A stretch of DNA of 57,859 nucleotides, filler included, from Jimgerdemannia flammicorona (lineage: Eukaryota), in assembly GCA_003990765.1 (NCBI GenBank). It is 3 parts of 3 records of this genome, joined end to end, with 100 filler letters (N's around TTAATTAATTAA, not from the genome) between each part and the next. Parts side by side here need not be neighbours in the genome. Positions count along the whole stretch, not along the records: positions 38,644 to 57,859 come from RBNJ01001998.1; 2 more parts are not named here. The stretch is one strand, 5' to 3'. A program made the translations under genes and the position numbers. Of this stretch, positions 12,309 to 57,859 are shown piece by piece. Every line of letters starts with the position of its first letter. The stretch's first letter is position 1. The notes under the pieces were generated by a model. That model ran no database searches and was not told the origin of the DNA. It saw only the letters and a list, made by a program, of their open reading frames with translations.

Positions 12309-12310
12309 AA

Positions 12311-13791
12311 TGTAACATGCTGGCTCAATGGAGGCAAATTACAAGGTTGGGGGTTGATGGAGTTTGGCTTGAGCCCCCAGTTACTTTGTCAAAAGCAACA
12401 AAATGTTCTTGGTATTTAGTGGTATAATAGTCAAAGCAGGATATCTACGAGTAATTTCCTTATTCAGACTGTTCTCTAGGTGCAGCGGCAATTTGTGTGT
12501 GAATGGACTTCCTTCTTGGGTCAACTGGGAATGCCACAATAATTTGTATAGCGCGACGATCTCCAAAAGTATGCAATTTCTGGGTGTGATGGTCTGGCAA
12601 TTTAGCAGTTCTCCTTCTTGGGTGATGGTCTCTGATTTCTGCATGATGATCTCTTATGCAGCACAGTGGGTTCCTTATGCAGGGCATTCTGATAATTTGG
12701 CGGATAACTCGATTTGGCTCACTGGGAATTGTACAGCACAGATTCTTCCTAAAATGGCAGAGTTCTTAGGGAATGTGGATAACTCGGTGGCTTTAACTGG
12801 GAATTATCTCAGGTGGCAGATAACTTGATAACTCGGGCTCACTGGGAATGATGAATAACTTGGATGTCACAGATTCTTCTAAATCAGCAGCTTCAACTGG
12901 GAATATGGCAGATAGCTTAGAAATAGTGGGTGATGTGGATTCTTCCTGAATTGGTGGGCTCTTAACTGGGAAATGGGATGGTGCAGATTTTTCCTGAATT
13001 GGTGGGCTTCTACTGGGAATATGAACAACTGGCAACATTCTTTGGGAAAGGGTCTCTTGGCAAAGTTACATCAAAGACTGGCTTCATTTGTGCAACAAAT
13101 CACTGTGAAGTTGCATCAGAAACTGGCTTGAGCAAGGCGGCTTTCTTGGGAAGGTGGAGGATAGGGTTCTTCAGGCTTATCTGGCAAGCATACCAATAGC
13201 GTGGCTTATTCCTTTAAGCAGTGGGTTCTTCAAGAGGTGGCGAAGTTCTCCTTGAACTTAGGCAGCAAATCTTCAGGCTTATCTGGCAAGTGAACCAATA
13301 GTTTCAAAGGTAGCAAAGTTCTTCCTTGAACTTAGGTGGCAAAATCAGCTTTGTATTGGAAAGTGGACCAGAGTGGGAATAAGGGGACCAATTGCTCAAT
13401 CTTTAGAGGCTTCTTTGGTTTGCACTTCAATTTGGACTGAGGTTTTATTCACTCTCGCCTCTGGGGTAATTTATACAAGTTGGTTGCTATCTGGTTGCTA
13501 TGTGGCTAACTATAGACTTGCTATCTTCGGTAATGTTTGGGTGTGTCCTCTGGGTACAGGTGTGTCCACAGGACATGTGTGTGTCCGCCGGACATGAGTG
13601 TGTCCACAGGACATGAGTGTGTCCGCAGGACACAGGTAAACAATCCTGATCTGGTGTCTTGGCTAATTATAAGTGTGGCGGGCATAAGTAACTATGATAT
13701 ACTGGAAGTCACATCATGTTGAGTAAATATGCTAATTGTTCATATCATCTGGCTAAGTTATAATTCAGGTGCTACGTTTTGGTCCATCACA
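12311..13791 (-). repeat. 5' LTR of Gypsy family 1 (1481 bp)
   Basis: Direct repeat of 3231-4730. Confidence 0.97.
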
Positions 13792-19222: not shown

Positions 19223-19322
19223 NNNNNNNNNNNNNNNNNNNNNNNNNNNNNNNNNNNNNNNNNNNNTTAATTAATTAANNNNNNNNNNNNNNNNNNNNNN
19301 NNNNNNNNNNNNNNNNNNNNNN
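19223..19322. other. Artificial contig spacer
   Basis: N44 + TTAATTAATTAA (stops in six frames) + N44. Confidence 0.99.
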
Positions 19323-38543: not shown

Positions 38544-38643
38544 NNNNNNNNNNNNNNNNNNNNNNNNNNNNNNNNNNNNNNNNNNNNTTAATTAATTAAN
38601 NNNNNNNNNNNNNNNNNNNNNNNNNNNNNNNNNNNNNNNNNNN
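38544..38643. other. Artificial contig spacer
   Basis: N44 + TTAATTAATTAA + N44. Confidence 0.99.
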
Positions 38644-39114: not shown

Positions 39115-39264
39115 ATGCCTCAATTAGTTCCTTTTTATTTCCTTAACCAGGTATCTTATGGATTCCTATTTCTATTTATTCTAATTTTTGTATTATCTAA
39201 ATATTTCTTACCACTATTTGTTCAACTACAATTTGCTCGGACTTTAATCTCTAAACTAGGGTAA
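39115..39264 (+). CDS. atp8: Mitochondrial ATP synthase subunit 8 (49 aa)
   Basis: [49 protein letters not shown]. Confidence 0.98.
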
Positions 39265-39493
39265 TTATAGTCTACCCTCCCCCCTCATTTTCAAACTGAT
39301 CCGCTTAAATATTCGATATATAAGTAAAGTGATGTGCTTTGTGGGTGTATAACTTAACCCCACCGGGCGGCCCCGCCCACGGCGCTAGACGCTTGCGGCG
39401 GGGACCGTAGGTAATAATTAAGTCAAATTAGGAATATCGATTCGAATTTGGTTATACCCGCTTATGAATAGAATTTAAGTAAAGTATAAGTAA

Positions 39494-39554: not shown

Positions 39555-39753
39555 ATCCAGCAACGATATGTAATCTTAAGGGATGTCGCAGTCAAACATC
39601 CCTGTTTGAGTAAATAGGTGAGTCTTTGACCATCACAATAGTAAACCGACGAAGCTGTCGTTTAACATCAGTGGAGTCAGCAGATATCTCAGCGTTAATG
39701 AGAGTCTCTGTGTAACACCTTTGATACTCTTCTCAACTAAGTTTGATCTAACT

Positions 39754-40084
39754 CCCGGGGGGCAAGCGTCTAGCCCCCGAGGGGCTTGTCCCGTCGGGGG
39801 TGAGTCCCCCTTGGGACTAGCGTCTTGTATTTATACAAGATGCTGAACGCAATTATTGCTTAAGCAATAAAAGCGTCTAGCCCCGCAGAGCGGCGCTCGT
39901 CCCTGAGACCCGGCTACGGGGAGGGGTGAGTCCCCTTGGGACTAGCGCTGTGGCGCTACGCCTCTGGCGCAGGGATACCAGCGCATAGGGTTGTTTGTTT
40001 GTTTAAACAAACAACCTAGCGCGGTTTCTAATTTTTTATTTATAAAAAATTGTAATAGCGCCGTCCCTCCCGGGAGGGCGTGGG
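39754..40084. repeat. GC hairpin host element carrying five TAG-delimited modules
   Basis: Junctions end at 39773, 39820, 39880, 39945, 40019 and 40058. A near-identical four-module copy lies at 52790-53046. Confidence 0.9.
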
Positions 40085-40893
40085 ATTAGAAAATTCTATT
40101 ATAATGGTTTATTTAGTCTAATTGAGTTATACAGATCTTATATTAACTATATTGAATTGTTGGAATAAAGTATAAAGTATAGATTAATGAGTGAAACTGT
40201 AATGGATTACTATCGTTGAGAATACATTATGACTAAATTAAACTGTAATTGAGTAGCGATTATGGAGTATTCCTATTTATTCTAACTACTCCAAGTAGTT
40301 CAACTTCAGAGTATATCGCTAAGAACACTGATTTTGATCACGATGTGGATTACAATGTAGATCACAATGTAGAGCACTTTGAGGGACTTAGTGATATTAT
40401 TGATATTTCTGGTTATTCTACTTCCACACCTATTTCAATGGCTAAACCTGCTGTTGGTACTTTAACTCCTGCGGGTGTGTCACTCGTTGGTACTTCAGAA
40501 AATCATTCTAGTGGGACTCCCGGAGCACCATCTAGTGGAACTCCCGGTGAATCGATTTTAGGGGACCGGCCCCGGCCACGGCGCTAGTCGCTGGCTTTTA
40601 CTAAAGCCAGCTACATGCGACCGTGTCGTTGGGCTAAAGCCCTACGCCACAGCGCTAGTCGCTGGCCCGGGGCCGCCCTAAACAAACTTGCTGAAATTCA
40701 AATGAAACAGACTGAAATTTTATCTGAAATTCGATCTGAAATTTCATAATTGAAAGGCAATGTATCCGCTTCCCATGTTGAAATTCGAAAAGTACTTGCT
40801 GTTGAAATCCAAAATGTACGAGCGGATGTCCAATCTGAACTTTCTTCAATTAGATCGGAAATGAGATCAGAAATTAAAGCGTCTTCTCAATCG

Positions 40894-41233
40894 AGGGGAC
40901 CGGCCCCGGCCACGGCGCTAGGAGTGAGCGGCCTGCCTTAAAGCAGGCCCCTCGCTCCATGCGACCGTGTCCCGGCTTTTGTTAAAGCCGGGCCACGGCG
41001 CTAGGAGTGAGACCCAGCGGGGCTCGCTCCATGCGACCGTGTTTTTTCTTTTAGAAAAACCACGGCGCTAGTCGCTGGCTTTTACTAAAGCCAGCTACAT
41101 GCGACCGTGTCCGGGCTTTTGTTAAAGCCCGGCCACGGCGCTAGTCGCTGGCTTTTACTAAAGCCAGCGGAATGCGACCGTGTCGTTGGGCTAAAGCCCT
41201 ACGCCACAGCGCTAGTCGCTGGCCCGGGGCCGC
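40894..41233. repeat. Tandem array of four double-hairpin modules in a host element
   Basis: Alternating constant linkers CCACGGCGCTAG and ATGCGACCGTGT with variable hairpins. A one-module version lies at 40561-40677. Confidence 0.92.
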
Positions 41234-41434
41234 AGTAAAGAAGTTGGGGATTTTAAGGCGGTTGTAGAAGCTTTTAGCACTATTATTTCACCCCTTCTTG
41301 GTGCCATTATGGATTCCAATAAATCTGTAGTCAGCGCTGTTGTTGAATCTAATAAAGAAACAGCTAGACTAGTTGGATCTGCTCTGGATTCTAATAAAGC
41401 ACTAGTTTCGGAATTAGCGACGATTGTTGCTTCT

Positions 41435-41665
41435 AAAGATGGTATTTTGACATTTCCTACAGGAACATTTAAAGGGTTATATTATTCTGAAGAGTAACGA
41501 GTACTAACTTCACTTGGTTATTCGGTTGAATGTGAAAAGGGATATCTATTTGCTAGTTCTGATTTATTCACTGAGTATGTAGAACATTTCTATAAACTAA
41601 AATCTGAAGCTGCTGGTGGAGAAAGATATATTGTTAAACTGCTACTTAACGGACTATATGGCTTC
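41435..41665 (+). pseudogene. dpo: Plasmid-type family B DNA polymerase fragment
   Basis: FPTGTFKGLYYSEE*..LGY..GYLF..LFTEYVEHFYKLK..RYIVKLLLNGLYGF. Confidence 0.9.
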
Positions 41666-42269
41666 TGTTGCTCCCCCCCTTCTTTGAAGGGGGGGAGCTA
41701 CCGGAGGGCGACCAAGTCCGCCGGCCCCCCTGGGGGAGTCGATCTCAATATTATAACCAATCCTTAATTATCGATCAAAATGAGATTGTGGATCAATTTT
41801 TTTTTGCTGGAGGCAAACTACGTCTGCCAGCAAAAAAAAACCGCAGTGATCATCCGCCAGGAGGTCCTCTACTACCCCCATGTAATACTCCATCAATAAA
41901 CTCTCAATGTCCTAATGAAGAAGTGTAATAACCCACTTCACCAACATTTCTGCGTACGCCGGTGGGGGTCGGCCCATCGGCCCACCCTCCCCGAATGGGG
42001 GGGGGGAGCCGATTTATATATATTTATATATAAAATTCACAACTATATTATATTATAATATGGTAGTCGATGCTAGTCCCGAGGGGACTCACCCCTCCCC
42101 GTAGGGGGAAGCGACAACACTCTCCCCTCCCCGTAAGGTCTCAGGGGGGGGCTAGAAGAAATCTATTAAAATCAACAGTAAAGATTTACGACACCACAAG
42201 TGTGCTTTTGAGCATAGTAAGAGAAAATTCTCTTCATTATAGATTAAATCAACAATATTATAATTATAT

Positions 42270-42360
42270 TAGAGATTATAGGATTCGAACCTAGATAATG
42301 ATTACCATTAATGATCAGGCTTGATTGACGGTCCACGCTTAACCATTAAGCTAAATCTCT
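42270..42360 (-). ncRNA. tRNA-like RNA with enlarged anticodon arm (91 nt)
   Basis: Acceptor AGAGATT/AATCTCT, D-arm GCTT/AAGC, T-arm TAGG-TTCGAAT-CCTA; no canonical 7-nt anticodon loop. Confidence 0.6.
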
Positions 42361-42427
42361 ATAAATCATAGGATTTCTCTTAAGGCTAATGCAATACCTA
42401 TATCGATAGTTACCACGCTTCATAAAT

Positions 42428-42556
42428 TGAAGACCCAAGGATTCGAACCCTGATCTATCGATATACCACTGCATATAAGATTGGGCTTTTAGACCCAAAT
42501 ATTTATACACAGTGTGTCACAGTCTATCAATCGCTTTACCCTTTAGCTAAAGCTTC
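42428..42556 (-). ncRNA. tRNA-like RNA with a long hairpin in place of the anticodon loop (129 nt)
   Basis: Acceptor GAAG../..CTTC, T-arm CAGGG-TTCGAAT-CCTTG. Stem ATTGATA/TATCGAT encloses CACTGTGTATAA...TTATATGCAGTG. Confidence 0.6.
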
Positions 42557-43125
42557 TGAGCTGTATGATAGGTTATATGTGGGGGGGGTAACCCCATATG
42601 AAGAAGCCTTTCATCAATGTTATATTTGTTGGGTGTGTTCCAGTAACCCTCAGGTTACAGGAACACATATTCAAATTAAATCAATTCAAGTTAGTTAAAA
42701 AATCGTAATTCGTATTTCTAGGGTAGCTCCCCGCCCCGTCTTCTTTATAAGAAGACGGGGCCGGGAGCAAGTCGGCGTAGCCGAGGGTCCGGAGGAGGTG
42801 GCGGGAGCCACCCGGCACTACCCCCCTAGCATCTGTTGGTTGCACTGGTATGAAAAACCATACTACTAACCCGTTATACTGACATGCGTGTACAGTCGAT
42901 TACAGCTTGACATATTACCTATATCAAATAATCTATTTTGAATATCTAAACATCTTATGCTGGATGAGTGCCCACCCAGTTCGCTAATCTATAAAGTATA
43001 GCTGTCTAATTTGTTTAATTCATATTATAGGCAATGTGAATCCTATACTTATATTATGATAATAATTAATATTTCAACTTAAATACTAATAGGAGAAGTT
43101 TGGACCATTTAGAGTTGCAATCCAA

Positions 43126-43278
43126 CTACTTTTTTACTAACCCCAAGCATAAAACCGACGAATCCAAAGGAATGGATGGTAAGGGGCAATTTCTAACAGA
43201 AATGGTTAAAGAGGCAGAGTCACCGCCCCACCAATAAACAGTGATAAACAAGAAAAGTCATACAACATCAACGAAATG
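43126..43278 (-). pseudogene. cox3: cox3 C-terminal tail, copy 4, with read-through extension
   Basis: HFVDVVW(TGA)LFLFITVYWWGGDSASL...SVLCLGLVKK*. Confidence 0.85.
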
Positions 43279-43279
43279 G

Positions 43280-43659
43280 GGGGGAGGGGTGAACCCCATA
43301 AATAGACAGTGATAAATAAAAAAAGCCAAACAACATCGACAAAATCATATTACTCCTCTATTTTCATAGTGGTAAGGACTATATCTTAACTCAATGTTGA
43401 TAAAGAGCTTACTACACGTAGTCTCTGGGGTAAATTCCTGCTGATTGCCCAATCTCAACCGTTATTATCATTAAGATAGATAGAGTTTAAGGGTGTTTTA
43501 GCATTTGGTAGTATTCAAAATATTGATTATAATATTAAGGGTATTTTCATGCCAATACAGAATTGCTGCTTCAAACCCAGTATGATGAGAATCGGTGAAA
43601 TGGTAAGCAACCATTCTATACAAACAAACAGTTAAAAAAATAGTACCGATTAAGACATC
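43280..43659 (-). pseudogene. cox3: cox3 3' fragment, copy 3, split by a group I intron
   Basis: [36 protein letters not shown] / [19 protein letters not shown]. Confidence 0.9.
43346..43550 (-). ncRNA. Minimal ORF-less group I intron
   Basis: Core elements AAATGCT, AATCAGCAGG, CAGAGACTAC and AAGATATAGTCC in order, with terminal G at 43346. Removal restores W-H-F-V-D; boundaries are ambiguous by 2 nt. Confidence 0.85.
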
Positions 43660-43725
43660 TAGAGACCTAACTTATATAGCATACTTGGATGCATATATGG
43701 CCCAACTAACTTTTCGAAAATCTTC
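43659..43725 (-). pseudogene. C-terminal remnant of a LAGLIDADG endonuclease
   Basis: [17 protein letters not shown], abutting cox3 copy 3. Confidence 0.7.
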
Positions 43726-43816
43726 CATAGATTGAGCTCTAATAAAAATTCTCTTGGCTTGATTATAACCCCGAACAGTACAGTGCCAACCATATCGTAT
43801 AGCCATGGCTCCACTG

Positions 43817-43850
43817 TAACCGTATGTGCAACTTTCATCGCATACGGCTC
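43817..43850 (-). ncRNA. Group II intron domain V
   Basis: GAGCCGTATGCGATGAAAGTTGCACATACGGTTA: AGC triad, GAAA loop, AC bulge, 34 nt. Confidence 0.85.
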
Positions 43851-44001
43851 AAGCACTAAACTTACGAGTTATTACAATATACTAAATATACAAACAATCT
43901 ATGGCTGTAAAGATGGAGTTAAAATTATCCTTTAAGAACCTCGAATAAAGATAATACTCGAAGATTAAAAGGTAATATAAACAATTACAAAACGGATACA
44001 A

Positions 44002-44897
44002 TTAACCTTTTTTAAAAACATAAAGGCCTTTATAGACCTCCCCAGATCGAACCGCTTTAGAAATAGCACAATGGTTAATATTTAAGTATCTGGCTGCTTC
44101 TCTATACGATGGGAATGTAAATAATAATGAATTATCTGTGGCAGAGTATACCGAAACGCCTTGAGCTCTAGAGGTCAGAACGCCATACATTGGGTTATTT
44201 TCACCCGCCTTTGCTGCACTCATTGCCGCGACAGTCGAGTCCGAATGTCTTTTACCTCAATTTGGATTGTTTTCACCTTGATTTGCTGCACTGATTGCTG
44301 CTTTAGCTTCTGGCGTGTGCTGATAACCTCATCCTGAACCGGCTTTTTTGTAGTTTTTTATAGCGGGCACATGTCCGCCCTTGAAAAAACAAAAAAAACC
44401 GGTAAAAAGTTGAATCGACAGCTGGCCGGTAAAGAAAATAGCCAGTTCAAGTACAATTGCTCTCTTGAGAGTAGAAGGGCTTTAATCTCAGAAGGAGAAG
44501 TACCGGCAATAATTTCTACAAATTCTACGACGATAAATACAAAAGCGCCAATTCCGTACTTAGCGATAGCATTTCGTAGGTGAATGTTAGAAGAATGAAA
44601 AAAATGCTCATTCATTCTCTTGGAAAGATCGATAGTTGAACCAATGTAGATCGCGCCCGTAATTACACATCTAATAGCGTAAATGCCTGCTAATCCTTTA
44701 AGAGATTTAATGGCAGAGGCAAAATTATCAGTAATATTCAGATTCTCGAATTGCATTACACTAGGTAATGCTGCTGTGGGAAAAGATTCACCTTCACATA
44801 AGATAACGCTGTTTGAGCCTACAAGAATAATAATCCAAGCAATAAATAAAGTCATTGTAAAGAAACTAAAATTATGTGTAAATGAGTAGTTTTTCAT
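44002..44897 (-). pseudogene. Free-standing GIY-YIG homing endonuclease, frameshifted by a hairpin insertion (~44345-44400)
   Basis: AGIYAI..IYIGST..KRMNEH..REQ..FNFLP, then NUMOD3 repeats (GENNPMYG) and a C-terminal SYREAARYL helix-turn-helix. Confidence 0.93.
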
Positions 44898-45719
44898 GAT
44901 GGTGTTGTAGGCCCCCGGGGGGACCGGCGGACTTGGTCGCCCTCCGGTCCCCCCGGGGGATTAAATAAAATAAAATCAAATAAATAGGGGGGGTCAATGA
45001 TAAATATAACTAGTTCCTAATTAGTTATAGCGGGGACAAAGCCCCCGACTTTCTCACACCATTAAGAAGGTGACTGCCGTCCAAGCCTTTTCCTCTTGAA
45101 AACCGTTTTATCTTGATCACCTTAGTCACTTAATGTGTGTCATCGACCGGCTATACATGGATTAATTTACTATTATATTACCGAAATGGAGTTACCTCCT
45201 AGACGACTCATGGAGTCCTCTCCTAGAGACTGTATCTATAAGCCATAGATTTCGTTGATATCTCTTTAAATATCTCTATCTATATAGCTCAGGGATGTCG
45301 TGGATCCTCTTTGATCCGGAGAGTACCTTTCCTGGGTATAGCTCCTTCAGTTTATTGTGGTTTTAATTCAATATTCACAATTTCTTAGACATCCCCATAT
45401 GACTTTTTAAACGTAACAGCAAACTGAAATAAGTATATACAGAATTCAGTAAATAAAGCTGAAACCGGTAAATAAATAACAATTAATATACTATAGCCAA
45501 AAGAGATTCTGGTCTGATTAATACCACGATTAGCCCCTCCCTTTAGGAGGGGCCAGCGACGAGCGCCGTGGCCCGGGGGGGGCTACCAGTGGTAAAATCT
45601 TTATCCTTTTTGTTAATGTCCTTTACTTATAAAGAAGATGAAAAACTTAAAATATAACGCAAGGGGACTGCCATCCATCCTTCGCATTAGTAGAGAACAG
45701 CCATCTAACCATAAGAAGT

Positions 45720-46700
45720 TAAATATTTATCCTTTTTGTTAATTGCCTATACCTATATTGAAAAATTGGGTGCGGCCCCGGGGGGACAAGGGGCGGGTAT
45801 ACGACCCTTCCCGCCTCGTTAGCACCCGCCCACATCTCCTGGGTAAGCTTACCCAGGAGCCGAGGGGGGGAGCAACCCCCGGGTAAGTGTAATCTGTATG
45901 GAGGGGGTGAAGGCCGGTAGCAACGATTTAGCAACTCAACCCGATCTAGAGACGCCGCGGGGACCCCTTTACAAGTCGGCAACAATCCGCAAGAGAAAAA
46001 CTATCGGTACAAAACAATAGCCCAGTACTCGCCCACGTCCCATCTCCCATCACCCAGTGCGCAATACCTTCAGCATTAAGATATGTAAATAAATGAATAT
46101 CCGCAGGAACGACTTTCTTCCCTAGAACATAAAACATATTATAGAACACCGTTAGACACAAGAGGGCGCGAGTATAGAACGCTACTGTTTTAATTACTCC
46201 ATCAACAATCTTACTTGCGTCAGGGAGAGAATTACAAAAAGGGCTAAAAATGAAAAACACAAACCAGAAATATGGGGCATGCTCTGGAATAGATTGTACA
46301 AAGGTGAATCTCACTAAATTGGTTCCCTTTTGTAGATACCCGTCAGACAGCATAATTCCAAAAAGGATGCACGCCTCCCGGGCCGGCGGACTTGGTCGCC
46401 CCCGGCCCGGGAGGACCATATTAAATGGTAGTTGAAACATATGTGCTAGGTATTTAGGCATTTGATTAGCGAATAGCCCAATAGAAGTGCGATCCCATGG
46501 TTAAAGAACCCCAAACAACTAATGCTGTACATGTTGTTGGAGGAAATAATAGAGCCACTTTTTTCATAATTCTCTTTGTATCTTTATGGGTATAACTTAC
46601 CGGTAGTAAGGTTGCCCAGCATAAAAAGGGGTCGTCTAAAAAAATGAGTGAAGATGAGAAAAATATTACAGGTCAATAATGCCACACAATAACGTTAGAA
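45720..46700 (-). pseudogene. Double-motif LAGLIDADG endonuclease interrupted by GC elements
   Basis: CTALVVWG, LFGIMLSDG, IAHWVMGDG and LCTDSFS-like motifs. Confidence 0.9.
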
Positions 46701-46711
46701 AGAATGAAATT

Positions 46712-47099
46712 AAAAACATACATAGCAAAAGCCTGTACTTCGTTGAAAATACTACCCGTGGGGCCCACGGGTGGGACGGCGCTAGACGCTTGCCCCCCGT
46801 GGGTTTGTACAAAATTGTAATTCGTTGAAGATACTACTTAATACTAGCTGTCCTTTACCAGTCACTAAATGATCAACTCATTGCGGAAGAAAACTCTCCC
46901 ATAGATCGTGAAAGGCAGTTACTGGGAATAAACCGACAGCACCCCCTACACCCGAACCTACTAATAAGACTAAAATCCTTACTAGTACCCCAGTGTAGAG
47001 TAAGTTACGATCGGCAATCCACTTAAAATAAATAGCGGTAATCCGAAGGGATGGTAAGGTGATCACTAAAATCATAATTCAAATTAAAATTCAAACCAT
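46712..47099 (-). pseudogene. nad2: nad2 5' fragment (degenerate)
   Basis: ILVITLPSLRITAIYFK...VGSGVG..GLFPVT and EVQAFAMYV. Homologous, with its upstream flank, to 56611-56970. Confidence 0.7.
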
Positions 47100-47255
47100 T
47101 ACAACTTAACAACAATAACAAGAAAATCTAAAATCCTGTTTCTTATATGTTCTGCCAGATTCTAAAGTTAGCCAGACCTAACCGTAAGGGTGTGATTAGC
47201 CCCCGCCCTATACTAGAGAAGATCGATATCTAAATAATGGGGGGGGGGGGGGGGG

Positions 47256-47927
47256 CTAAGAGCCCCATAAATAAATAGAAACGTATAAAAATAGCCAGAC
47301 AACATCTACAAAATGTCAGTAAAGAATCGCCGTTTCAAAGCCAACTGGATGATGATTTGTTAAATGATATGATAAAAGTCTGAAAAGGCATACAATTAAG
47401 AATGCCGAACCAATAATAACGTGTAGTCCGTGGAAACCTGTTGACATATAAAAAGTACAACCGTAAACTCCATCTGCCAATAGTTAATGGAGCATTGTAA
47501 TACTCGAAAACTTGTAAACCAGTAAAAATGGCAGCTGCGCCCGCGGGGCGCTGCAGTAAAACTATGTTTAACAGCTAAGATAATAGTAAATAGTAAACCA
47601 TAAAAAGAACCATTTCTAGAGCCAGCGATCAAGCTGTGGTGAGAGTATGTTAAAGTCGCTTTTTTTGGTTTTTGCTGGAGGCAAACTACGTCTGCCAGCA
47701 AAAACCAAAAAAACGGAGCTCAATAAAATAACTGTGTTCAATAAAGGGATCTCAAAAGGATTCATAGTCTCAATACCTGCTGGAGGCCAAATAGAACCTA
47801 ATTCAACTGTAGGAGCTAACGCGGAATGGAAAAATGCCCAAAAAATACTAAGGAAAAAGAAAACTTCCGAGATAACGAATAAAATAAACCCTAAAGTTAA
47901 GCCAGACCTAACCGCAAGGGTGTGGTG
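47256..47927 (-). pseudogene. cox3: Displaced cox3 3' two-thirds, copy 2
   Basis: [17 protein letters not shown]...[19 protein letters not shown], broken by palindromic insertions (~47662-47712, ~47531-47554) and a frameshift. Confidence 0.93.
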
Positions 47928-47937
47928 ACGACCCGCC

Positions 47938-49395
47938 TTACACTAGAGAAGATCGAAAGATCCATAAAGATTTACTAACCTTCCCCGTATCGATCATACG
48001 GTAAACAGACGTTGCAGAGATATTACAGAATTTTGCAGCGGCTGTGATTGTAGGAAAAGTACCAACATATTCATTGTTGTGCGTATACACATAGACTGCT
48101 TTACTTAGATGATGATAACTCCCTGACATTTTTGCTAGCGTCTCTGGGGAATGTTTGAACCCTAAGCTCGATTCTGCCATAGAAAGAATGTTATAATAAG
48201 GGTGGAAAGTATCTAACGCTAGTTGTTCAAGAGTTAATAGTTGTTCCCGAGAACAAAAGCAAAGAATTGAGAACGTAAAAGCGGATAGCGAATACTTCAA
48301 GAGAGCGTTCTGTAAAAGAATATTCGAACTACCACCGTACAAATGTTGATGCAATCTTCTCGCCAAATCAACAGAGCTACCAATATACTGGTGCTCATTC
48401 AGCTGATTAGTAAAAGCGTAGATCCCTGTTTGGCCTCTCAGCTCCGCCTTAATAGCCGAATAGTTTTCGAGAATATCCGAATATACAGTAGGGTTTGAAA
48501 AAGGATCATTAAGAGGGGTTCCTTCACACATTACATTATTAAAGAAAAAATCCATGATTGTTTGAACATCGATATCCAAAAATAATGAGGGGGAGGCGGG
48601 AGAACCCCACCAATAAATAGTAATGAATAAAAATAGCCAGACAACATCTACAAAATGTCAGTAAAGAATCGCCATTTCAAACCCTTCATGATGATGGTTT
48701 GTTAAATGATATGATAAAATTCTGAAAAGGCATACAATTAAGAATGCCGTACCAATAATGACGTGAATTCCATGAAGCCCGGTTGTCATATAAAAAGTAG
48801 AGCCATATACTCCATCTGAAATAGTAAATGATGCATTATAGTACTCATAGGCTTGTAGAGCTGTAAAAATCGCAGCCAAGAAAATAGTAATAAATAAACC
48901 AAAAATAGTACCTTTTCTAGTCCCAGCGATCAGACAATGATGTGAATAAGTTAAGGTGGCTCCTGAGCTTAATAATAATACGGTGTTTAATAAAGGGACT
49001 TCAAATGGATTTAACGATTCGATACCTGCGGGTGGTCACATGCACCCTAACTCTACAGTTGGGGCTAAAGATGAATGGAAGAAAGCCCAAAAAAAACTAA
49101 TGAAAAAGAATACCTCTGATACAATGAAAAGTAAAAAGCCTAATTGTAGACCACGTCTAACCTGCAGTGTATGGTGCCCTTGGAAAGTTCCTTCTCTACT
49201 AACGTCCTTTAGCCACAAAGCCATTGAACTAACTGTAGCAATAATCCCTAAAGCCAATAACAAAGGCCCGTTAGAGTAACCATGAAAACACATAACTCCA
49301 GATAAAGTAGTAGTTAATAAAGCGAACGCAACCGATAAAGGCCATGGAGATGGCTCAACTAAATGATACGGATGAGCTTGAATTGATCTAAGCAT
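47938..49395 (-). CDS. cox3: Cytochrome c oxidase subunit 3 fused in frame to a GIY-YIG endonuclease (code 4; alternative ATG at 49419)
   Basis: [12 protein letters not shown]...[19 protein letters not shown], with TGA=Trp at 49036 and 48658. No stop follows; the frame continues [12 protein letters not shown]...GIYAFTN..YIGSS to TAA at 47938. Confidence 0.95.
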
Positions 49396-50364
49396 AATAT
49401 AAACTATATAACCCATCATTTACCCAGCTGCCCCAAGAGTCTTAATAAACCCTTACCCAATCCCATATACTTGATATTAGGAGGCAGTAAGATACTACTA
49501 ATTATGGGGGATCAGTAGAATGGTGATGTATCTCTTCTTAATACCCTCCGATCAACCGAAGGTTGATGGGGGAGAGGAACTAGAATTAAAGGAATCTTAA
49601 GATAAACTATAAGAATCGCTTACTCACTTGAGGAGTGTTCTAGTACTTCCTTTTATTAATTTACAAGAATCGGTAATGCTGGCCAGCCTAGGGAAATGAA
49701 GTACTAGCTCCTCGTAAGAGGGGCGTTGGGGTTCTTTTCTTGGTCAACTTTAATAATGGAGGGTTCCTACGGACTAAAGGAAGAAAGGAGAACCACGTTC
49801 TCGCTTCGCCCCTGGAATCAGGGACAAGTGCCGATTCAGCGTGTCCAATCGGAATAGAGCTACCCTCACACAATCTAAGGTTCATGGAACTCAAGAGAAT
49901 GGGAGGGTATGGAGAGTTGGGTTGTCCTTCTGTCTTTGTGTATGTGTGTTGTATGTGTGTTTAGATTTGGTTATTATTGTATATTCTGTGAGGTATCAGT
50001 CCCCCATATTAACGGCCGGCCGGCCGGCCGGTTGATCATTCGATCTACCTTAACGATGGGAGGGTTAGTGGAGTAGGGTATGCTTCAGAGGGAGTCGTCG
50101 TTTGCTCCATTTCTGGGGCTCGTCGTGCCGCGTGATCGATCATGTTGACCATGGAAGCCTCCTCAATGAGAAAACAGGTCGTGTGAACATCGAACGAACT
50201 GGGGAAGCGAGCAATAGGAGGATATACATAGGGGTACGACGTGGTCGAGCTTTATTCTGTGAATGCTCCGGATGACATGGGAGTCTGTTGTCCCGTTGGG
50301 GTTGGTTGGTAGGATGGGGAGAGGTTTGTTAGTTGTGAATGAAAGAAAAGGGATTTTGTGTATA

Positions 50365-50436
50365 GGTGAGGTAAGGAGTCGAACCTTAATAATCAGATTA
50401 TAACAATCGGATGCTTTGCCTGTTAAGCTACCCACC
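50365..50436 (-). pseudogene. Degenerate tRNA, probably Asn(GTT)
   Basis: D and T arms intact. The anticodon loop is 9 nt (TTGTTATAA), the stem has a mismatch, and the acceptor lacks one base. Confidence 0.55.
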
Positions 50437-51324
50437 TAGAGGGTAACCCCCTTACCCTCGACCACAATGTCCTTATTTTTGCCTATTTTCTTACCCAAAG
50501 TAGGCCGGCCCGGGGGTGAGTGGGGTGAAACCCTACTACTTTTAAGCACCTTCGCCAAAACGGCTTCAGTTTCTCGTGTATAATCCTTGTGTTTAAGGTT
50601 TTGCCTACAGCGCTTTGGTATAGCCATACCCTACAGCACAAATACGACCTTCCTTACAACACCTTATTACTCCTCAAAGGCCTTAATAATACGGTTTCAT
50701 TAAACTCAGGGTTATGAAAGGTGCTGTTACCATGCCCCTGGGTTTATCGTCTTATTTTAGTAAGAACGGGTCGACTTCTCAAGAAGGGGTCAAAGTCTCA
50801 CTTTGAAGCCGGTTTCGGAGAGGGAGATTGAGCCCCCAGATAGGGCTCAACTCGCCCGGGAGTGGAGCGACCTCCCACAAGCCTCAGCTTACTACAATCG
50901 GATAGAGCTTCGGGAGTTCTGCGACCACAATGTTCTGTCCTGTCTACTTTGTAGACGCAGAGGGGTCTGGGGATTCTTCCCCAGGTCCTTTGGGTATCAC
51001 CCGGTTTAAGACCCTAAGATTAAAGATGGCTGGGCCTAAGCCCGATTAACGGTCTTGGAGCGAACCAGGCGTTGTGGGGTATACAGAGGCGGCCATTTTG
51101 CTTGATTGTTAGTACATTTGAGATACAGTCTGATTTAAGCCACGTTTTAAGTGCTATATACATAGGTCACATTCGTCCATCACCTCAAGGTTACGGGACA
51201 TTTTCTTACGTAAGCAAAACACTATCGGGACTTTATCGAGTTCGAAAAATATATATTTATATATATTTTTTAATTTTTATATTATATATAAAAATCGATT
51301 TCAACCCCCCCCCCGTAGGGGGGC

Positions 51325-51622
51325 GGGCCAGCCGTGGCGCCTCTAACCAGGGTACAACAATCTTTGTGAACCAGATTCGGCACGGTCGCATGGTTGGTTT
51401 GTGGCCCCCGGAGGACTCCCCTCGGAGTGTTCCGAGGGGGCCCCCCTGGGGTTTAAAACAAACCAGCCTAGCGCCGTGTCTGCCTATAAATATGCTGCAC
51501 GGTCGCATGGTTGGTTTGTGGCCCCCGGGAGGACTCCCCTCGGAGTGTTCCGAGGGGGTTGCCCCCCCCCTAAAGGGGGGGGGCTAGTTAAACAAACCAG
51601 CCTAGCGCCTTCCGCCGGGGCC
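51325..51622. repeat. Two large TAG-delimited double-hairpin modules
   Basis: CACGGTCGCAT-GGTTGGTTTG...AAACAAACCAGC-CTAG occurs twice. Confidence 0.85.
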
Positions 51623-52004
51623 AGTAATTAAATTAACCAAAGTTGCCTCTGCCTGAGTACTTTCAACACCCCATTACTCAGTTTAACGTAATTCTCGCAC
51701 GCTTGATCATTGTCTGCTTGTTGAGAATTTTCCTTTACTTATATATCTTATCTCTTATACATATATTACACACATTTACTTATATCTTATCTCTTACACA
51801 TTATATTATAATGTCTTACTTCAACCTAGCTCTACCTTCGAGTCCCACGCTTCGAACCATGTCTGCTTGTGGATTCGATTCCTTCTCTTCTATGTTTTTA
51901 TATGGCCGGAGTCATTGTTACCGGAGCTTAGAATATAGAGACCTTCAAAGGGCTAGAAGCCACGAGCTGAGGGCCGGGCCTAGAAAAAAAACTAGTTAAT
52001 CTAA

Positions 52005-52053
52005 CCCACGGGGGGCAAGCGTCTAGCGCCGTCCCTCCCGTGGGCCCCGCGGG
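52005..52053. repeat. Empty host hairpin element (no modules)
   Basis: GGGGGCAAGCGT-CTAG-CGCCGTCCCTCCC. An inverted empty copy lies at 46755-46803. Confidence 0.9.
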
Positions 52054-52789
52054 AATATATATTTTATATATTTTCGATAGATATTATATATAATATCTAT
52101 AGACGACCCCCTCCCCGTAGGGGGGGGGACCGGCGGACTTGGTCGCCCTCCGGTCCCCCCGGGGGGTAATCTGAATAATTAATTAGACTGTATATCTATA
52201 TCTTAAGTCCTGTTGGCTTAAATTACAATATACTTAGAAATTGTATTCATCCAGCAATTGAAATTGTTTTATATGTACTATGTTTATGCGAATATTTACA
52301 GTATAAACAGATTTAATGAGTCGTTAGAAGCGTTTCTCTCCTTATTCGCCCTAGGCCCCCAAGGGGCCTCGCCCCGTAGGGCCAAGCCCGACAGGGCTAG
52401 AAGGGATATAATTTAACACCATGCAAAACCATTACTCACAAACTCTTGCTACATTCACTCAATACGTGCTACCTAGATTATCTGGTGCATTGAGTAGGCA
52501 GCTACAGCTTTTATTGAAGCTGCTAATACCACTGTACTAACAATCTATCTTATAATCAGTATGCTAAGTTAACTGGTTATATTAATTCTTCCAATATTCA
52601 TGCTGCGTATAGAGCAGCATTACTTGAATTATTATCGTTTGGTCTAAATCAAGTCTAATTATGCCAATGCAACTGAACGAACATCTACTTCTGGAGGTAT
52701 TGTTTCCGGCCCCGGGGTGGCCGGCGGACTTGGTCGCCCTCCGGCCACCCCGGGGCTCTTTTATCAGGTTTAACCACAATTGTATCAAC

Positions 52790-53046
52790 CCCCTGGGGGC
52801 AAGCGTCTAGCCCCCGAGGGGCTTGTCCCGTCGGGGGTGAGTCCCCCTTGGGACTAGCGTCTTGTATTTATACAAGATGCTGAACGCAATTATTGCTTAA
52901 GCAATAAAAGCGTCTAGCCCCGCAGAGCGGCGCTCGTCCCTGAGACCCGGCTACGGGGAGGGGTGAGTCCCCTTGGGACTAGCGCCTTGGTTTTCTAATT
53001 TTTTATTTATAAAAAATTGTAATAGCGCCGTCCCTCCAGGGGGGCG
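52790..53046. repeat. Host element with four modules
   Basis: Junctions end at 52810, 52857, 52917, 52982 and 53025. Confidence 0.9.
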
Positions 53047-54796
53047 TATTTTACCTATTGCCCATGCTATTATTGAATCTAATTATGCTTTAGCTGAGTC
53101 TAATCTTGCTTTAGCTTCAGCTATTAATCTTAGAACTCAACTTGATTTGATGAATCTAACTGCACAGCCTGTAAAAACGGTTGTCGATAATTCATTAATT
53201 ATTGAAAATAATGGAACCCATGACCCTTTCATTGAAGTATCACTGGATACGAATAACCCGTTTTCTAAGGATCTAGCTAATACAGATCCATTTAATTCTC
53301 CCTCTCCATTTTGGGTTACCCCCCTAGGTAGTAACCTGCCGGGTCTAGTTCTCCGGCAGCCCCTGAGGGTTGGAGCCCTCCTGATGACGGAATTTCTCTA
53401 CTTTCACCAAACTTTTGGGATGACGGTTATTTTTGGGAATGGGATGAAGATGAAGGTGAACAATATTTTGATAGAGAAATGCCAATTCCATATGAAGGTG
53501 TTGAGTTACCAACTTTTAAGGTATTGTAATTAAAGAATCAATTCATACTAATGAATATATGTCTACGATAAAATAATATATATATTATTTTATTGAATGC
53601 CCCCCGGGAGACAAGGGGACAACGGTCCCGCCTCCCGGGGTTATTAAAATAAAATTAGATTTCCCGGGGTGGCCGGAGGGCGACCAAGTCCGCCGGCCAC
53701 CCCGGGACCGAAACCACAGTATCGGTCGCTCCGATAAATATTATATAATAATATTTATTAAAAATATATAAAGATATTTTAGATGGGAGCTCTGGTTCTC
53801 TTGCAGAGCGGGAGTTAAGTGTTACTTTAGCTGAAACTATGAAAAACCCGGATGGGACAAATACATATCCAGTACCTCCGATGATACCGAGCGAACTGTA
53901 GAAATTACGCCAGATGAAGCAGGTTTTAATTCTAAGTTATGAGCAGATATTGATTCTAGACTCTGAATCCATGAACCAGCTACAGAAGGGTTTATTTTCC
54001 CATCATGGGATCCTGTGTCTGTTTCAACAATGCCAATCCCATATGATGGTGTTGAGTTCCCGCTACAAGGTTCTGCACATTTAAACCCTATTATGGTTTT
54101 AGATTCTCCATCATCTATGGATTATGATTTCCATGAAGAGTCACTTGATTCTGCACCTTTAAAACTTACTATGAATTTACAATCTCCCCCAGATGTGGAT
54201 TATAGAGTTACTGAGGAACCACTTCTAGATCTTGATGTTCATGATGAGCTATATTTAGATCAACTGCTGCTTGCTCGGGATCCAGCTCTATGTGAACCTA
54301 ATTATGATGCTCCAATTGGGAGTTCCCCCCTCGCAACGCGAGTAGTACCTGTAGAGCCTTTAATTGAGCCGTCCCGGAATATTCTGAGTTTTTAGATTTA
54401 CCAGTCAATACACCTTCTTCGAGTGTACCGATCCCCGGGGGGACCGGCGGACTTGGTCGCCCTCCGGTCCCCCCCGGGGACTTGATACAACTTCACCATT
54501 AGATCAAGTCAATACTGAACCCCACGCCCCCCGGGAGACAAGGGGACAACGGTCCCGCCTCCCGGGGTTTATAAACAAGTTTATGACCGTCTCTATACCT
54601 AAATATAGATGCTTTAATTACGCATAAAGATTTTCAGGCCCCGGGCGCCACGGCGCTTAGTCGCTGGCCGCCCGGGTCGTATGCAAATAAAAACATACTA
54701 TTAACCCATTATACTGACATGCGTGTACAGTCGATTACAGCTTGATTCGGGGGTGCACGGGGACCCCCCGGCCATAGGTCACGGGGGGTCCCCAAC

Positions 54797-55072
54797 ATTT
54801 TTTGCGGCAAGCGACTAGCCCCCGAGGGGCTTGTCCCGTCGGGGGTGAGTCCCCCCTTGGGACTAGCGCTGTGGCGTAGGGCTTTAGCCCTAGGATACCA
54901 GCGCATGGGTCGTGTGCTATGGCACACGACTAGCGCTGTGGCGCTACGCCTCTGGCGCTGGGATACCAGCGCATGGGGTTGTTTGTTTGTTTAAACAAAC
55001 AACCTAGCCCCCGAGGGGCTTGTCCCGTCGGGGGTGAGTCCCCCTTGGGACTAGCGCCTATTGCAAAAAAAA
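54797..55072. repeat. Module array (four modules)
   Basis: CTAG junctions at ~54815, 54864, 54930, 55004 and 55051. Confidence 0.88.
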
Positions 55073-55885
55073 AGCAAGTAGTAACCATTCTTCCTAGCCT
55101 AGTTGTGGAATAACAATTGCCGCCGCCGCCGCCGCAACTATTACGGCCTTTCAGAGAGACATAGCTTAAATGGAGAACTGACTTTTTTTTTTTTTGTTTT
55201 TGTTTTTAATCAGGCGACCCCCGGGCCACGGCGCTAGTCGCTGGCCCCGGGGGTGATTATCACAAATGGAAATATTGTATACAATAACCTGATTCGATTC
55301 CAGTGAGTCTATAATATAAGTAAAGGAAGGCATGGGTAGGTATACCATGCTCCGCGCCCCTCCATTATTCGGGTTAAAAGGTTTGTTCCCAAATATACCT
55401 AAATAGCACACTATGCCCTATTCAATAACCCTATAGCTATATATTTAATCATGAATATTCATATGAGTCGCCATAACTCACTCAATCTACAATTTTTATT
55501 CTATAATTTTTTTGATTTTCATTCTATAGGTGGGTAGGTCCAAAACACACACATGTGTGTGTTTTTGATTTTTATATAAATATAAAAATAGATTCCCCTC
55601 TTAGCCGCAGATTTCCAGCCATTTTACCCGGCCGCACAAATCAAGGGGATGTTTGTGACCTCTCTAAGCCGCATATTTTAACCCATTTTCCCCACTAGTC
55701 AAAATCAAGCCATTTTTGTTTGCTGAAGGTTTTTTAACGGGGGCACCTTCTCGGGCAGCACCCTTATTCGGTTAGTGCTCACTTAACCCGGGCTTTGATG
55801 GCAGATTCCTCACTATCTCGAATTTGGCCTATAGAACCCGTGAATCCAACAAAGCCAGGATTTACGATATTCTACCCCCGGGGCT

Positions 55886-56066
55886 CCCGGCCGGAAGGCG
55901 CTAGGCTTGTTTGTTAAAACAAACGAACCCCATGCGCTGGTACCCTTGGGCTAAAGCCCTACGTCACAGCGCTAGGCTTGTTTGTTAAAAACAAACCAAC
56001 CCCATGCGCTGGTACCCTTGTTAGTTTAAACTAACAACGTCACAGCGCTAGGCTTGCCCGGCCGGA
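55886..56066. repeat. Module array (two modules)
   Basis: CTAG-GCTTGTTTG...ATGCGCTGGTACC...CACAGCG-CTAG occurs twice. Confidence 0.88.
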
Positions 56067-56644
56067 AGTTGGCCTAAATATTCGTATTTTAAATAACCAC
56101 CCTTTTAACCAATAGGGCCCCCCCCAAAAGTGTAAATGAGATAGGATATTTTACACAAGGCGTTTGAGCGGGGAAGTGCCGGCTCCAACATTACCGGAGA
56201 TTCGTGTCTATGCCGTTAAAAAGCGTTCTGGACTACCCGACTAAAGAGTATTCTAGCGAGGTAAAACTCTAAAAACAACGAGCTTTGAGACTTACACAAC
56301 GCTAGCCCTGTCGGGCTTGGCCCTACCCCTTGGGGGCCTAGAAGAAACTTGCCCCCAAGCCAATTACCTATAAATAACGGGAAAAGTGGTCTCCTTACCA
56401 TTTTAGATGGGTGGCTCCCGCCAACCTCCTCCGGAGGCCACAGAGTGTATTACAATGGTGTGGAGATTAACACTAACCATAAAATAAGTAAAAGTTTAAA
56501 TGGTTCAATATAAGAGGAGAACTATCAGGATTTATTATGTAAGAGACGGGTTGAATTTAATAAAAGAAACAATAATCTTAGATTCTCTTGTTAATAAAAG
56601 TAATAAGAATTTAAGATTCTCTTGTTAATGGTTGTTAAGTAGTA

Positions 56645-56970
56645 ATGGTTTTATTTTCTATTTTAATCCTGATTTTAGTGATCACCTTATCTTCCCTTCG
56701 GATTAACGCTATTTATTTAAAGCGGCTCTTTATACGTTACTCATTGCTGGGGTGTTAACAGGACTATTGTTAGCAGGTCCGGGCAATGGGCTATAGAGGG
56801 TTTATTCCCAGGAACCAACAATGAAATTGATGAAGGACTGCCAGTATTAACCAAATACCTCCATACAGTATTATTTACTGTATCTGGTACGAGTTGTTTA
56901 ATTTCAAGTTGGGATCTAGTTTCTATGTTCTCATCAATTGAACTTCAGAGTTTTGCTGCGTATGTTTATA
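56645..56970 (+). pseudogene. nad2: nad2 5' fragment (degenerate)
   Basis: MVLFSILILILVITLSSLRINAIY... and LISSWDLVSMFSSIELQSFAAYV. Confidence 0.8.
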
Positions 56971-57430
56971 GTTCTGTAATTTCTAAATTCACAGTACTCT
57001 GCGAAGGCACTTCAGACGAACCTAGTGTAGCTCAATTTTCTAATCTCCATTTAACTGACCAGCTAGTATCTGCGTATCAACAATTAAAGGGCCTAGCTGG
57101 TATTTATTGTTTTAAAAAATTACTGGGGCTATGTACATCGCCCCCGGCGGGCCAGCCTAGCTGAGCTTTTTCAAAGCTCAGCTTGGTGAACACAGCAAAG
57201 CTGTGTTAGCCTAGCGCCTTCCGCCGGGGGAGGATCATCTATTAATTTAGCGGTTAGAATGAGAGATCCCATCACACATACGTGTGATTGCCATCTTAAA
57301 AACGCTTTCTTAAAATATGGTTTAGCCTCGCACCGGGGTGCGCAGCCACCTCGGTGCGAGGTAACTCTCCCCTCCCCGCAAGGTCTCGAGTGGCCTCTTT
57401 TCTTTTTATTATCATTGAATATGTAGCAAA
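56971..57430 (+). pseudogene. GIY-YIG endonuclease remnant in frame with the nad2 fragment, broken by hairpin elements
   Basis: VLCEG..LKGLAGIYCF / GSSINLAVRM / LKNAFLKYGL / FLFIIIEY. Confidence 0.85.
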
Positions 57431-57480
57431 TTAATCCAGAGAGCTACCCTGGGGCAATTAGTGCTTTATTATTACTTCGT

Positions 57481-57786
57481 TTTTTTTTTGCAAGACGGCG
57501 CTAGGTTGTTTGTTTAAACAAACAAACAACCCCATGCGCTGGTATCCCAGCGCCAGAGGCGTAGCGCCACAGCGCTAGTCGTGTGCCATGGCACACGACA
57601 TGCGCCCTGCCTCCATCAGGGTATACCCATATTGCGCACAGCGCTAGTCGTGTGCCATAGCACACGACCCATGCGCTGGTATCCTTGGGCTAAAGCCCTA
57701 CGCCACAGCGCTAGTCCCAAGGGGGGGACTCACCCCCGACGGGACAAGCCCCTCGGGGGCTAGTCGCTTGCCGCAAAAAAAAAAAT
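57481..57786. repeat. Module array, inverted relative of 54797-55072
   Basis: CTAG junctions at 57501, 57575, ~57644, 57711 and 57760. Confidence 0.88.
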
Positions 57787-57859
57787 CCCGGGGCCAGCGA
57801 CGAGCGCCGTGGCCCGGGGGAGTGAGCAAATTTATTTGAATTGGCTCTTTTCACTACCT

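Follow-up and report, generated by a model that had tools for sequence, protein, structure and literature searches.

To our knowledge, how the GC clusters and double-hairpin elements of mitochondrial DNA (mtDNA) move has been an open question since the 1980s. DNA transposition, RNA intermediates and intron endonucleases are still offered as guesses for this mobility in the pertinent passages of two papers (PMC4478555, PMC2800124). The GC clusters of yeast mtDNA are presented in such passages as TAG-targeted, mobile and organised in tandem arrays (PMC4464245, PMC4478555); the one by Wu and Hao (2015) gives a putative AG target-site duplication and 'merger and shuffling' of units (PMC4478555), and that by Wolters et al. 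(2015) states that some classes occur mainly in arrays and that M4 targets 'the upstream TAG motif' beside M1 (PMC4464245). Here, we describe arrays of hairpin modules joined at the tetranucleotide CTAG in mtDNA of Jimgerdemannia flammicorona, contained in a 57,859-nt stretch of assembly GCA_003990765.1 (the window). The window consists of three joined contigs, as evident from the linkers N44-TTAATTAATTAA-N44 at 19223-19322 and 38544-38643, and its mitochondrial part is the third contig only (38644-57859, 19,216 nt), which is from the Endogonales (Mucoromycota) and, at ~43% GC, is not AT-rich.

Double-hairpin elements are said to have been sized at ~26-79 nt by Paquin et al. in 2000, and the hairpin repeats of Glomeromycota mtDNA called SIRs were reportedly treated by Formey et al. 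in 2012, as were yeast GC clusters, both single and in tandem arrays, by Weiller et al. in 1989. According to the passage of PMC10085805 that deals with them, double-hairpin elements were first found in Chytridiomycota and occur among Ascomycota only in Schizosaccharomyces; neither this passage nor a search on Jimgerdemannia mitogenomes yielded a report of them in Mucoromycota. The hairpin elements of Allomyces are characterised in the relevant passage of Erpenbeck et al. (2009) as devoid of flanking duplications such as usually accompany DNA transposition (PMC2800124). For Glomus, the corresponding passage of Beaudet et al. (2013) places the hairpin repeats beside dpo fragments and endonuclease open reading frames (ORFs) (PMC3787672). 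Literature searches retrieved no mitogenome paper for the Jimgerdemannia lineage, and the only match on CTAG target-site duplication in mitochondrial hairpins used CTAG in another meaning. A previous reading of this DNA from the sequence alone (the sequence-only reading) had named double-hairpin elements as precedent but missed the TAG-targeted GC-cluster arrays of the yeast passages (PMC4464245, PMC4478555); its label 'fungal mtDNA' was right, since cox3, atp8 and endonuclease ORFs lie on the contig. For cox3, the top named match was a gene model of 406 aa that NCBI lists as Jimgerdemannia flammicorona and whose exons agree fully with the translation from the window.

The arrays are accounted for, with a rough probability of 0.6, by non-autonomous mobile mtDNA hairpins that insert at (C)TAG and regenerate the site, the arrays growing by repeated insertion and being reshaped by recombination. 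To obtain the modules, which are delimited by CTAG, the contig was split at each of its 100 CTAGs. This gave 58 CTAG-to-CTAG intervals of at most 130 nt, ~30 of which fold as two or three hairpins. Consecutive CTAG spacings of 36-85 nt were found in 38 of 99 cases, compared with 18.9 ± 3.7 upon random placement (maximum 31, 2000 trials). Folding with z < -3 relative to dinucleotide shuffles was seen for 22/38 CTAG intervals and for 9/76 random intervals of the same length. A perfect-stem hairpin had its foot within -2 to +5 nt of a CTAG in 20 of 65 cases, with a null value of 5.2 ± 2.1 (maximum 13, n = 1000), the other 45 perfect hairpins not adjoining a CTAG. The arrays and listed elements contain 52 CTAGs in 3,229 nt, and the other 15,987 nt contain 48, with a first-order expectation of ~57; the frequency of CTAG outside the elements therefore shows neither avoidance nor enrichment. 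The ends of high-scoring segment pairs (HSPs) from self-BLAST were modestly enriched near CTAG (46 observed, 30 expected in repeat space, ±2 nt), the modest extent being due to HSPs extending into conserved flanks, and an explicit parse of hosts and modules was used in place of this endpoint test. We conclude that the arrays of CTAG-joined hairpin modules are real and clearly exceed chance.

With all arrays written in one orientation, thirteen host hairpins have the core (C/A)AGC(G-A/T)-CTAG-CGCC(G/T)T in common. Four hosts are empty and contain a single CTAG; nine are filled with 1-5 modules, giving 25 modules in total. The empty hosts lie at 52005..52040 (+), with the single CTAG in the apical loop, and at 46755..46805, 39361..39412 and 55217..55254 (all -); the sequence-only statement that the same host is empty at 52005 and 46755 was thus confirmed, the second copy being inverted. 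Three further host variants, likewise empty, carry CTAAG (54640..54680, -; CTAAG host at 54650) or CGAG (45544..45584, +, CGAG host at 45549; 57785..57825, +, CGAG host at 57790) in place of CTAG. Alignment of these seven empty copies revealed GC-M-AGCG-W-C-K-AG-CGCCGT to be invariant, with outer stems that are wholly different. Six empty hosts were folded as single-stranded DNA. In five, an inner mini-stem (GCG/CGC) sits on an outer stem and closes an apical loop of 5 nt (W-CTAG; ACGAG in one variant); the loop of the CTAAG variant has 6 nt.

Array I (39753..40075, +), with host stems TCCCGGGGGG / CCCTCCCGGGA and the core CAAGCGT-CTAG...TAG-CGCCGT, holds five modules (A 47, E 60, A2 65, B 74 and F 40 nt), and its paralogue array II (52790..53044, +), which is without the 74-nt B, holds four (47, 60, 65 and 44 nt). 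Five modules at 39754 and four at 52790 had been counted before, but the last sizes then given, 39 and 43, were off by one. Array III (54798..55073, +) has T/A-run host stems and the modules A 48, B 67, B 74 and A 47 nt; array IV (57480..57786, -) is its inverted paralogue with an extra 69-nt B and without the terminal 47-nt A. In array III, the pieces at 54863 (27 nt) and 54890 (40 nt) are one 67-nt module, which is split by a new internal CTAG owing to a point change from CCAAGG to CCTAGG, as evident from the copy at 57644. The 74-nt module recurs, exactly as the sequence-only reading had it, between CTAGs at 54930-55007 and inverted at 57501-57578.

Five arrays were added to those listed earlier. 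Array V (40561..40679, -) has the host core CCAGCGA-CTAG-CGCCGTGG and one B of 71 nt, and array VI (40894..41233, -), of the same host type, has four (71, 73, 67 and 83 nt). Array VII (55886..56066, -) contains two B modules (76 and 71 nt) in a host of the form GGCAAGC-CTAG-CGCCTTCC, and the host at 57141..57230 (+), GGCCAGC-CTAG...CTAG-CGCCTTCC, contains module G, a single 54-nt double hairpin. Array VIII (51300..51627, +) comprises two B-type units whose X hairpins bear further nested hairpins. The order of modules within arrays is that of the assembled contig.

The modules range in size from 40 to 83 nt, carry no ORF and are mostly double hairpins, two or three hairpins being predicted for families A, B, E, G and D. 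Family A, CTAG-CCCC...GGGGTGAGTCCCC(C)TTGGGAC-TAG (47-65 nt), is represented in hosts by two A2 copies (65 nt) and five A1 copies (47-49 nt; at 39770, 52807, 54815, 55004 and, inverted, 57711), and the latter occupy four arrays, the number given earlier for the 47-bp module. Family B (67-83 nt) runs from CTAG-CGCYGTG through hairpin Y, a conserved centre (ACACGGTCGCATG or GRTACCAGCGCATGG) and hairpin X to CTAG, and has 13 copies in arrays I and III-VII in addition to the two B-type units of array VIII. Family E consists of 60 nt with two AT-rich hairpins and family F of 40-44 nt with an AT-rich hairpin and a TAATAG end, each in two copies. Family G (54 nt) has one copy in its host and one, inverted, at the contig start (38647-38704 versus 57157-57214); the contig thus begins, at 38644, inside a CTAG-bounded module, and evidently the assembly broke at this repeat.

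Outside the hosts, three stand-alone elements are flanked by CTAG, namely an A-type element (42073..42155, -), the triple-hairpin element D (52351..52400, +) and a shorter inverted copy of D with other flanks (56302..56341, -). A 108-nt multi-hairpin block with a folding free energy of -41 kcal/mol lies between two CTAGs at 42718..42829 (unstranded). The hairpin with an AT-rich tail at 44910..44991 (unstranded), at the start of a GIY-YIG ORF, belongs to family C and has no CTAG flanks.

TAG was present in 33 of 33 array junctions, as CTAG in 31 and as ATAG in the two paralogous junctions between F and host. Non-circular evidence for these boundaries was obtained from three sides: both flanks of every array are contiguous in empty hosts; module A has the same exact CTAG-bounded ends in three different neighbour contexts; and the stand-alone elements at 42073, 52351 and 56302 are CTAG-flanked in unrelated surroundings and in both orientations. 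Unrelated modules (A, E, F, D, G) have only CTAG(C) in common at their boundaries. Junctions are asymmetric, CTAGCGC accounting for 28 of the 100 CTAGs, and the palindromic GCGCTAGCGC and L-CTAG-L' forms for none. B modules are uniformly oriented relative to the host in four array lineages, and A modules in four contexts from two lineages. The co-orientation claimed by the sequence-only reading therefore holds, with no opposed modules within an array, and its statement that modules are 'always joined at (C)TAG' is true of the host and module families but not of family C, whose seven copies (44913, 52120, 52711, 53663, 54434 and elsewhere) have no CTAG flanks.

Comparison of the paralogous arrays revealed differences by whole modules. 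Arrays I and II, with 98% identity along 204 nt, differ by the whole 74-nt B module, flanked by CTAGCGC. Arrays III and IV have host and order in common and differ by a whole 47-nt A and a whole 69-nt B; the 47-nt A site is empty in the paralogous array and reads AACAAC-CTAG-CGCC. Host and content were copied as a unit, given that the sequences beyond the hosts are unrelated to one another. Adjacent modules are 0.34-0.54 identical in arrays I and II, which implies that duplication or simple slippage was not the maker of these arrays, and 0.63-0.86 identical in arrays VI and VII.

A number of observations weigh against insertion at CTAG, and several of them are as expected if ordinary mitochondrial recombination alone had acted, by unequal crossover, gene conversion and microhomology joining at a repeated junction (CACRGCG-CTAG-CGC..., 7-33 nt) of which CTAG is just the centre. 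The junction count is partly circular, the modules having been cut at CTAG, and some hairpin families, such as the seven-copy family C, are without CTAG flanks. Where two B modules meet, up to 19-27 nt match the core of the empty host exactly, and the repeated junction of B amounts to 11-33 nt (CACRGCG-CTAG-...), not 4 nt. The 69-nt B indel is flanked by a direct repeat of ~33 nt (the shared X hairpin plus CTAGCGCTGTG) and is therefore equally explicable by unequal crossover, which concerns one of three indels. Adjacent B modules of arrays VI and VII may, at their identity of 0.63-0.86, be duplications, and tandem duplication would yield co-orientation of B equally and automatically. Orientation evidence comes from about four independent lineages, two array pairs being paralogous. 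The Y hairpin GTAGGGCTTTAGCCC was found with both centre types and with three X hairpins, from which it follows that hairpins were swapped inside modules at breakpoints without CTAG; some nested insertions in the X-hairpin loops of array VIII are likewise not at CTAG. The modest excess of HSP ends at CTAG (46 versus 30) also agrees with recombination only. All evidence on CTAG modules is from paralogous comparisons within one 19-kb contig, with no orthologous empty/filled site seen. The 19-nt host/B junction pattern occurred at three loci in metagenome contigs, all of them chance matches in unrelated sequence without arrays, and the 3' pattern of the A module had no match (0 loci each) in viral or in prokaryote genome contigs.

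Recombination as the sole cause is nonetheless considered unlikely. Modules A, E, F, D and G have exact boundaries even though nothing beyond CTAG(C) is common to them and their neighbours, arrays I and II are built of unrelated modules, and CTAG-flanked elements occur in unique flanks outside arrays. In addition, the hosts without CTAG are all empty (3/3, versus 4/13 of the hosts with CTAG) despite intact flanking homology; this excess is weak (p ~ 0.06, hypergeometric) and suggestive only. Of slippage and unequal crossover, which the sequence-only reading had set against its own proposal, simple slippage is unable to produce arrays of unrelated modules, and one of the three indels fits unequal crossover. 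As to that proposal itself, a site-specific and orientation-fixed integration at a TAG core, the precise junctions, the one CTAG of empty sites and the CTAG at each boundary of filled sites speak for it, and the small number of lineages, the long B junctions and the swaps within modules speak against it.

The anatomy, the empty and filled sites, the exactness of the boundaries and the co-orientation are shown; we infer that the boundaries arose by insertion rather than deletion and that CTAG is a recognised target, and the same standing applies to whatever is said below about an enzyme. If hairpins insert at (C)TAG, the preferred target would be the CTAG that a host with a core of ~18 nt, GCMAGCG-W-CTAG-CGCCGT, presents in its GCG/CGC-closed apical loop of 5 nt (W-CTAG). 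Each insertion would leave CTAG on either side and hence fresh targets every time, and repeated insertion in one orientation would enlarge the arrays. Homologous recombination or gene conversion among look-alike hairpins would then duplicate arrays, delete or duplicate modules and swap hairpins within modules. The enzyme would act in trans and be encoded off the contig.

A more specific possibility is dedicated site-specific strand transfer, in which a trans enzyme (HUH/Y1, tyrosine recombinase or structure-specific resolvase) nicks the loop CTAG, with hosts as attachment sites and modules as excisable cassettes; this we regard as doubtful. It would agree with the asymmetric core of ~18 nt in a hairpin loop atop variable stems, with the hairpin that ends every module 0-4 nt from CTAG, and with the strict co-orientation and lack of palindromic hybrid sites. 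B modules start with the right half-site of the host (CGCYGTG) and often end with the left half-site (CCAGCGA), as in an integrated circle; this arrangement is equally compatible with homologous recombination and with a circle integrating at an att-like site, and core halves are not found on A modules. Hairpin feet 0-4 nt from CTAG and co-oriented arrays also fit mechanisms other than that of IS200/IS605.

A mobilising enzyme was sought with Pfam in 76 of the 85 stop-to-stop frames of at least 70 aa on the contig, and also with NCBIfam and PHROGs in the 20 largest ORFs left unexplained. Pfam matches were cox3, GIY-YIG, NUMOD, LAGLIDADG, a dpo fragment and one sub-threshold PT-VENN; among the 20 unexplained ORFs, NCBIfam recognised only a weak NuoN (nad2-like) piece, and PHROGs had no match. 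No transposase, HUH protein, reverse transcriptase, recombinase or integrase was found among the 76 ORFs of the mtDNA contig, and a Y1 HUH transposase (TnpA) was detected neither among these with Pfam nor among the 20 largest unknowns with NCBIfam and PHROGs. The earlier remark that the enzyme is not visible was hence borne out for the mtDNA contig, and this finding speaks against strand transfer by an enzyme encoded there. An enzyme of the HUH, Helitron or IS200 type, which had been suggested from the hairpin-plus-CTAG ends, is supported by no test, the ORF scans having given endonucleases, dpo, cox3 and nad2-like pieces only; an HUH or cassette mechanism is speculation.

Fungal mitochondrial junction resolvases cut after CT, with Cce1 at ACT^A and Ydc2 at (C/T)T^, according to the passage concerned (PMC7078210), and CTAG lies at the foot of hairpins potentially able to extrude as cruciforms. 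A resolvase of the Cce1/Ydc2 type could, by this analogy, be a candidate enzyme, a hypothesis that provides a lead. CTAG is preceded by A, T or C, and the ACTA consensus of Cce1 is found at part of the junctions only, which counts against it. That the GCG-W-CTAG-CGC loop serves as attachment or nick site for such a structure-specific trans enzyme (HUH-like nickase or Cce1/Ydc2-type resolvase), with hosts as integration platforms and with excisable modules joined in one orientation, would seem rather improbable.

Part of the stretch is contained in 15 public runs, four of which were compared in detail (X1, X2, X4 and X6); all of these consist of short contigs breaking at repeats, X6 being 41 small pieces, and no weight was placed on shares under 0.2 (X3-X15). 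In X1 (soil DNA) and in X2 and X4 (one coded organism), 16 nt take the place of the 82 nt at 44910-44991, which contain a family C hairpin, and the match extends over 157-234 letters on its shorter side. It is clear that a hairpin element varies between strains, as shown for the non-CTAG family C hairpin only. A contig in X1, X2 and X4 joins 57499 to 57759, corresponding to an empty T/A-stem host, with only 20-22 nt on each side; this joint may come from another locus and was not taken for an allelic empty site. One contig in X2 and X4 departs from the window precisely at the end of the CTAG at 42152-42155 and has other letters from there on, a single observation that is consistent with CTAG as a junction.

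The same runs bear on whether chimeric arrays were produced by short-read assembly of repeats, which we judge to be extremely improbable. The start of the contig inside a repeat, the recurrence of 47-74-nt modules within and between arrays and the breaking of public contigs at repeats would be expected of such an artefact. Against it, contigs that match the stretch are present in four runs, each from a different study, X1 containing 56% of the sampled words of 47860-57859 with 201 of 355 contigs at least 99% alike; paired reads can reach across arrays of 120-340 nt, and both paralogous array pairs agree in module order. A role of the hairpins as functional cis elements, i.e. transcript processing or punctuation signals or origins of replication or recombination, is very unlikely. 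The conserved loop core, the strong folds and contigs over the region in runs guessed to be RNA, a nature that is unconfirmed, could be cited in its favour. Copy number, nesting, presence or absence between paralogues, and insertion in ORF-like sequence and by decayed endonuclease genes fit selfish spread instead, and Rfam revealed no family on the contig beyond two tRNAs.

As to the gene content of the mtDNA contig, full cox3 is encoded under code 4 (PF00510, E = 1.9e-122) and fused in frame to a GIY-YIG/NUMOD endonuclease. The intact fusion and partial downstream copies of cox3 lie at 47938-49419, 47233-47942 and 43129-43461 (all -), and a 230-nt repeat in this region is 86% identical between 47247 and 48589. 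The partial copies and the repeat are the pattern of endonuclease-driven gene-end duplication. The contig also has a second GIY-YIG/NUMOD ORF, a LAGLIDADG ORF, cox3 pseudo-fragments, atp8 (~39118-39265, read by eye) and a fragment of dpo, a plasmid-type B-family DNA polymerase (41498-41764, +; PF03175, E = 7e-13). One of the two tRNAs (50363-50437, -; ARAGORN, Rfam tRNA score 38.4 bits) has the anticodon UUA ('tRNA-Stop') and could be a mutated or pseudo tRNA or a suppressor. A nad2-like piece at 56721-57430 (+) gave a weak NuoN match (E = 1e-4); after it, an apparent start of a GIY-YIG ORF (GIYCF...) was noted by eye, with no family match confirming it, and is interrupted by the host at 57141-57230.

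Arrays V and VI lie inside ORF-like sequence at 40249-41500 (+), the translation of which is repetitive, of SEIRSEI type (coiled-coil-like), and gave no family match; the 112-aa frame at 40249-40587 terminates on the TAG of a host CTAG. Reassignment of TAG as cause of the CTAG pattern was rejected, the cox3 frame (table 4) being without TAG/TAA read-through. Contigs one and two of the window contain retroelement genes of nuclear type, namely reverse transcriptase (27537-28337), integrase (4984-6096), gag-protease with an aspartyl protease (9839-12415) and dUTPase (7700-8629).

The anatomy described here is cleaner than that in yeast, with an asymmetric loop site of ~18 nt, empty, singly and multiply filled states, and natural CTAG-less variants that are empty. 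By this, 'target preference' becomes testable with oligonucleotide substrates and candidate mitochondrial nucleases. TAG-bounded hairpin arrays are extended to the Endogonales, and for annotation it is relevant that the arrays break short-read assemblies and disrupt ORFs in such mitogenomes. If the loop CTAG were indeed the site of strand transfer, mitochondria would have their own equivalent of integron cassettes or of the single-strand transposition of hairpins, and the same machinery could be common to Mucoromycota and Ascomycota, the yeast GC clusters also using TAG.

IS200/IS605 (HUH, Y1), REP/BIME and integron attC sites are known for hairpins near a fixed tetranucleotide, co-oriented arrays and a short boundary core. 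The likeness of the CTAG arrays to these bacterial systems is anatomical only, as the modules are gene-free and mitochondrial and no HUH transposase or integrase was seen; in particular, integron cassettes differ in that no integrase lies on the contig and that the modules are 40-83 nt without an ORF. The SIRs of Glomeromycota belong to a related lineage and resemble the present elements in their many hairpin types, their intergenic and intronic positions and those at endonuclease ORF edges, and the accompanying dpo fragments, as on the contig; the passage on them makes no mention of a CTAG/TAG boundary or of nested tandem arrays (PMC3787672). The double-hairpin elements of Allomyces, chytrids and Schizosaccharomyces are likewise GC-rich two-hairpin units of tens of nt, dispersed in intergenic mtDNA and regarded as mobile. 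Unlike the Allomyces elements, which are without flanking duplication, the modules described here have CTAG on both sides and stack in arrays.

By described features, not by sequence, the closest precedent would appear to be the yeast mitochondrial GC clusters, followed by the double-hairpin elements. The GC clusters (classes M1-M4, GC42) are also short, non-coding hairpin repeats of mtDNA, comparable to the strongly folding CTAG intervals, and have a (T)AG direct repeat at both ends, as do the arrays with TAG at every junction and one CTAG in empty hosts. In both systems, single elements occur besides tandem arrays, units are shuffled and the enzyme is unknown. In contrast to the GC clusters, the boundary here is a 4-nt palindrome, CTAG, usually CTAGC; many arrays are situated in the loop of a larger hairpin with the asymmetric conserved core; some modules are AT-rich double hairpins, in a genome of ~43% GC; and the hosts keep the loop and vary the stems, the reverse of what is reported for GC42. 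It is the palindromic CTAG(C) boundary, the partly AT-rich double-hairpin modules and the nesting of arrays in a loop-conserved host hairpin that set the arrays apart from this known kind of selfish repeat.

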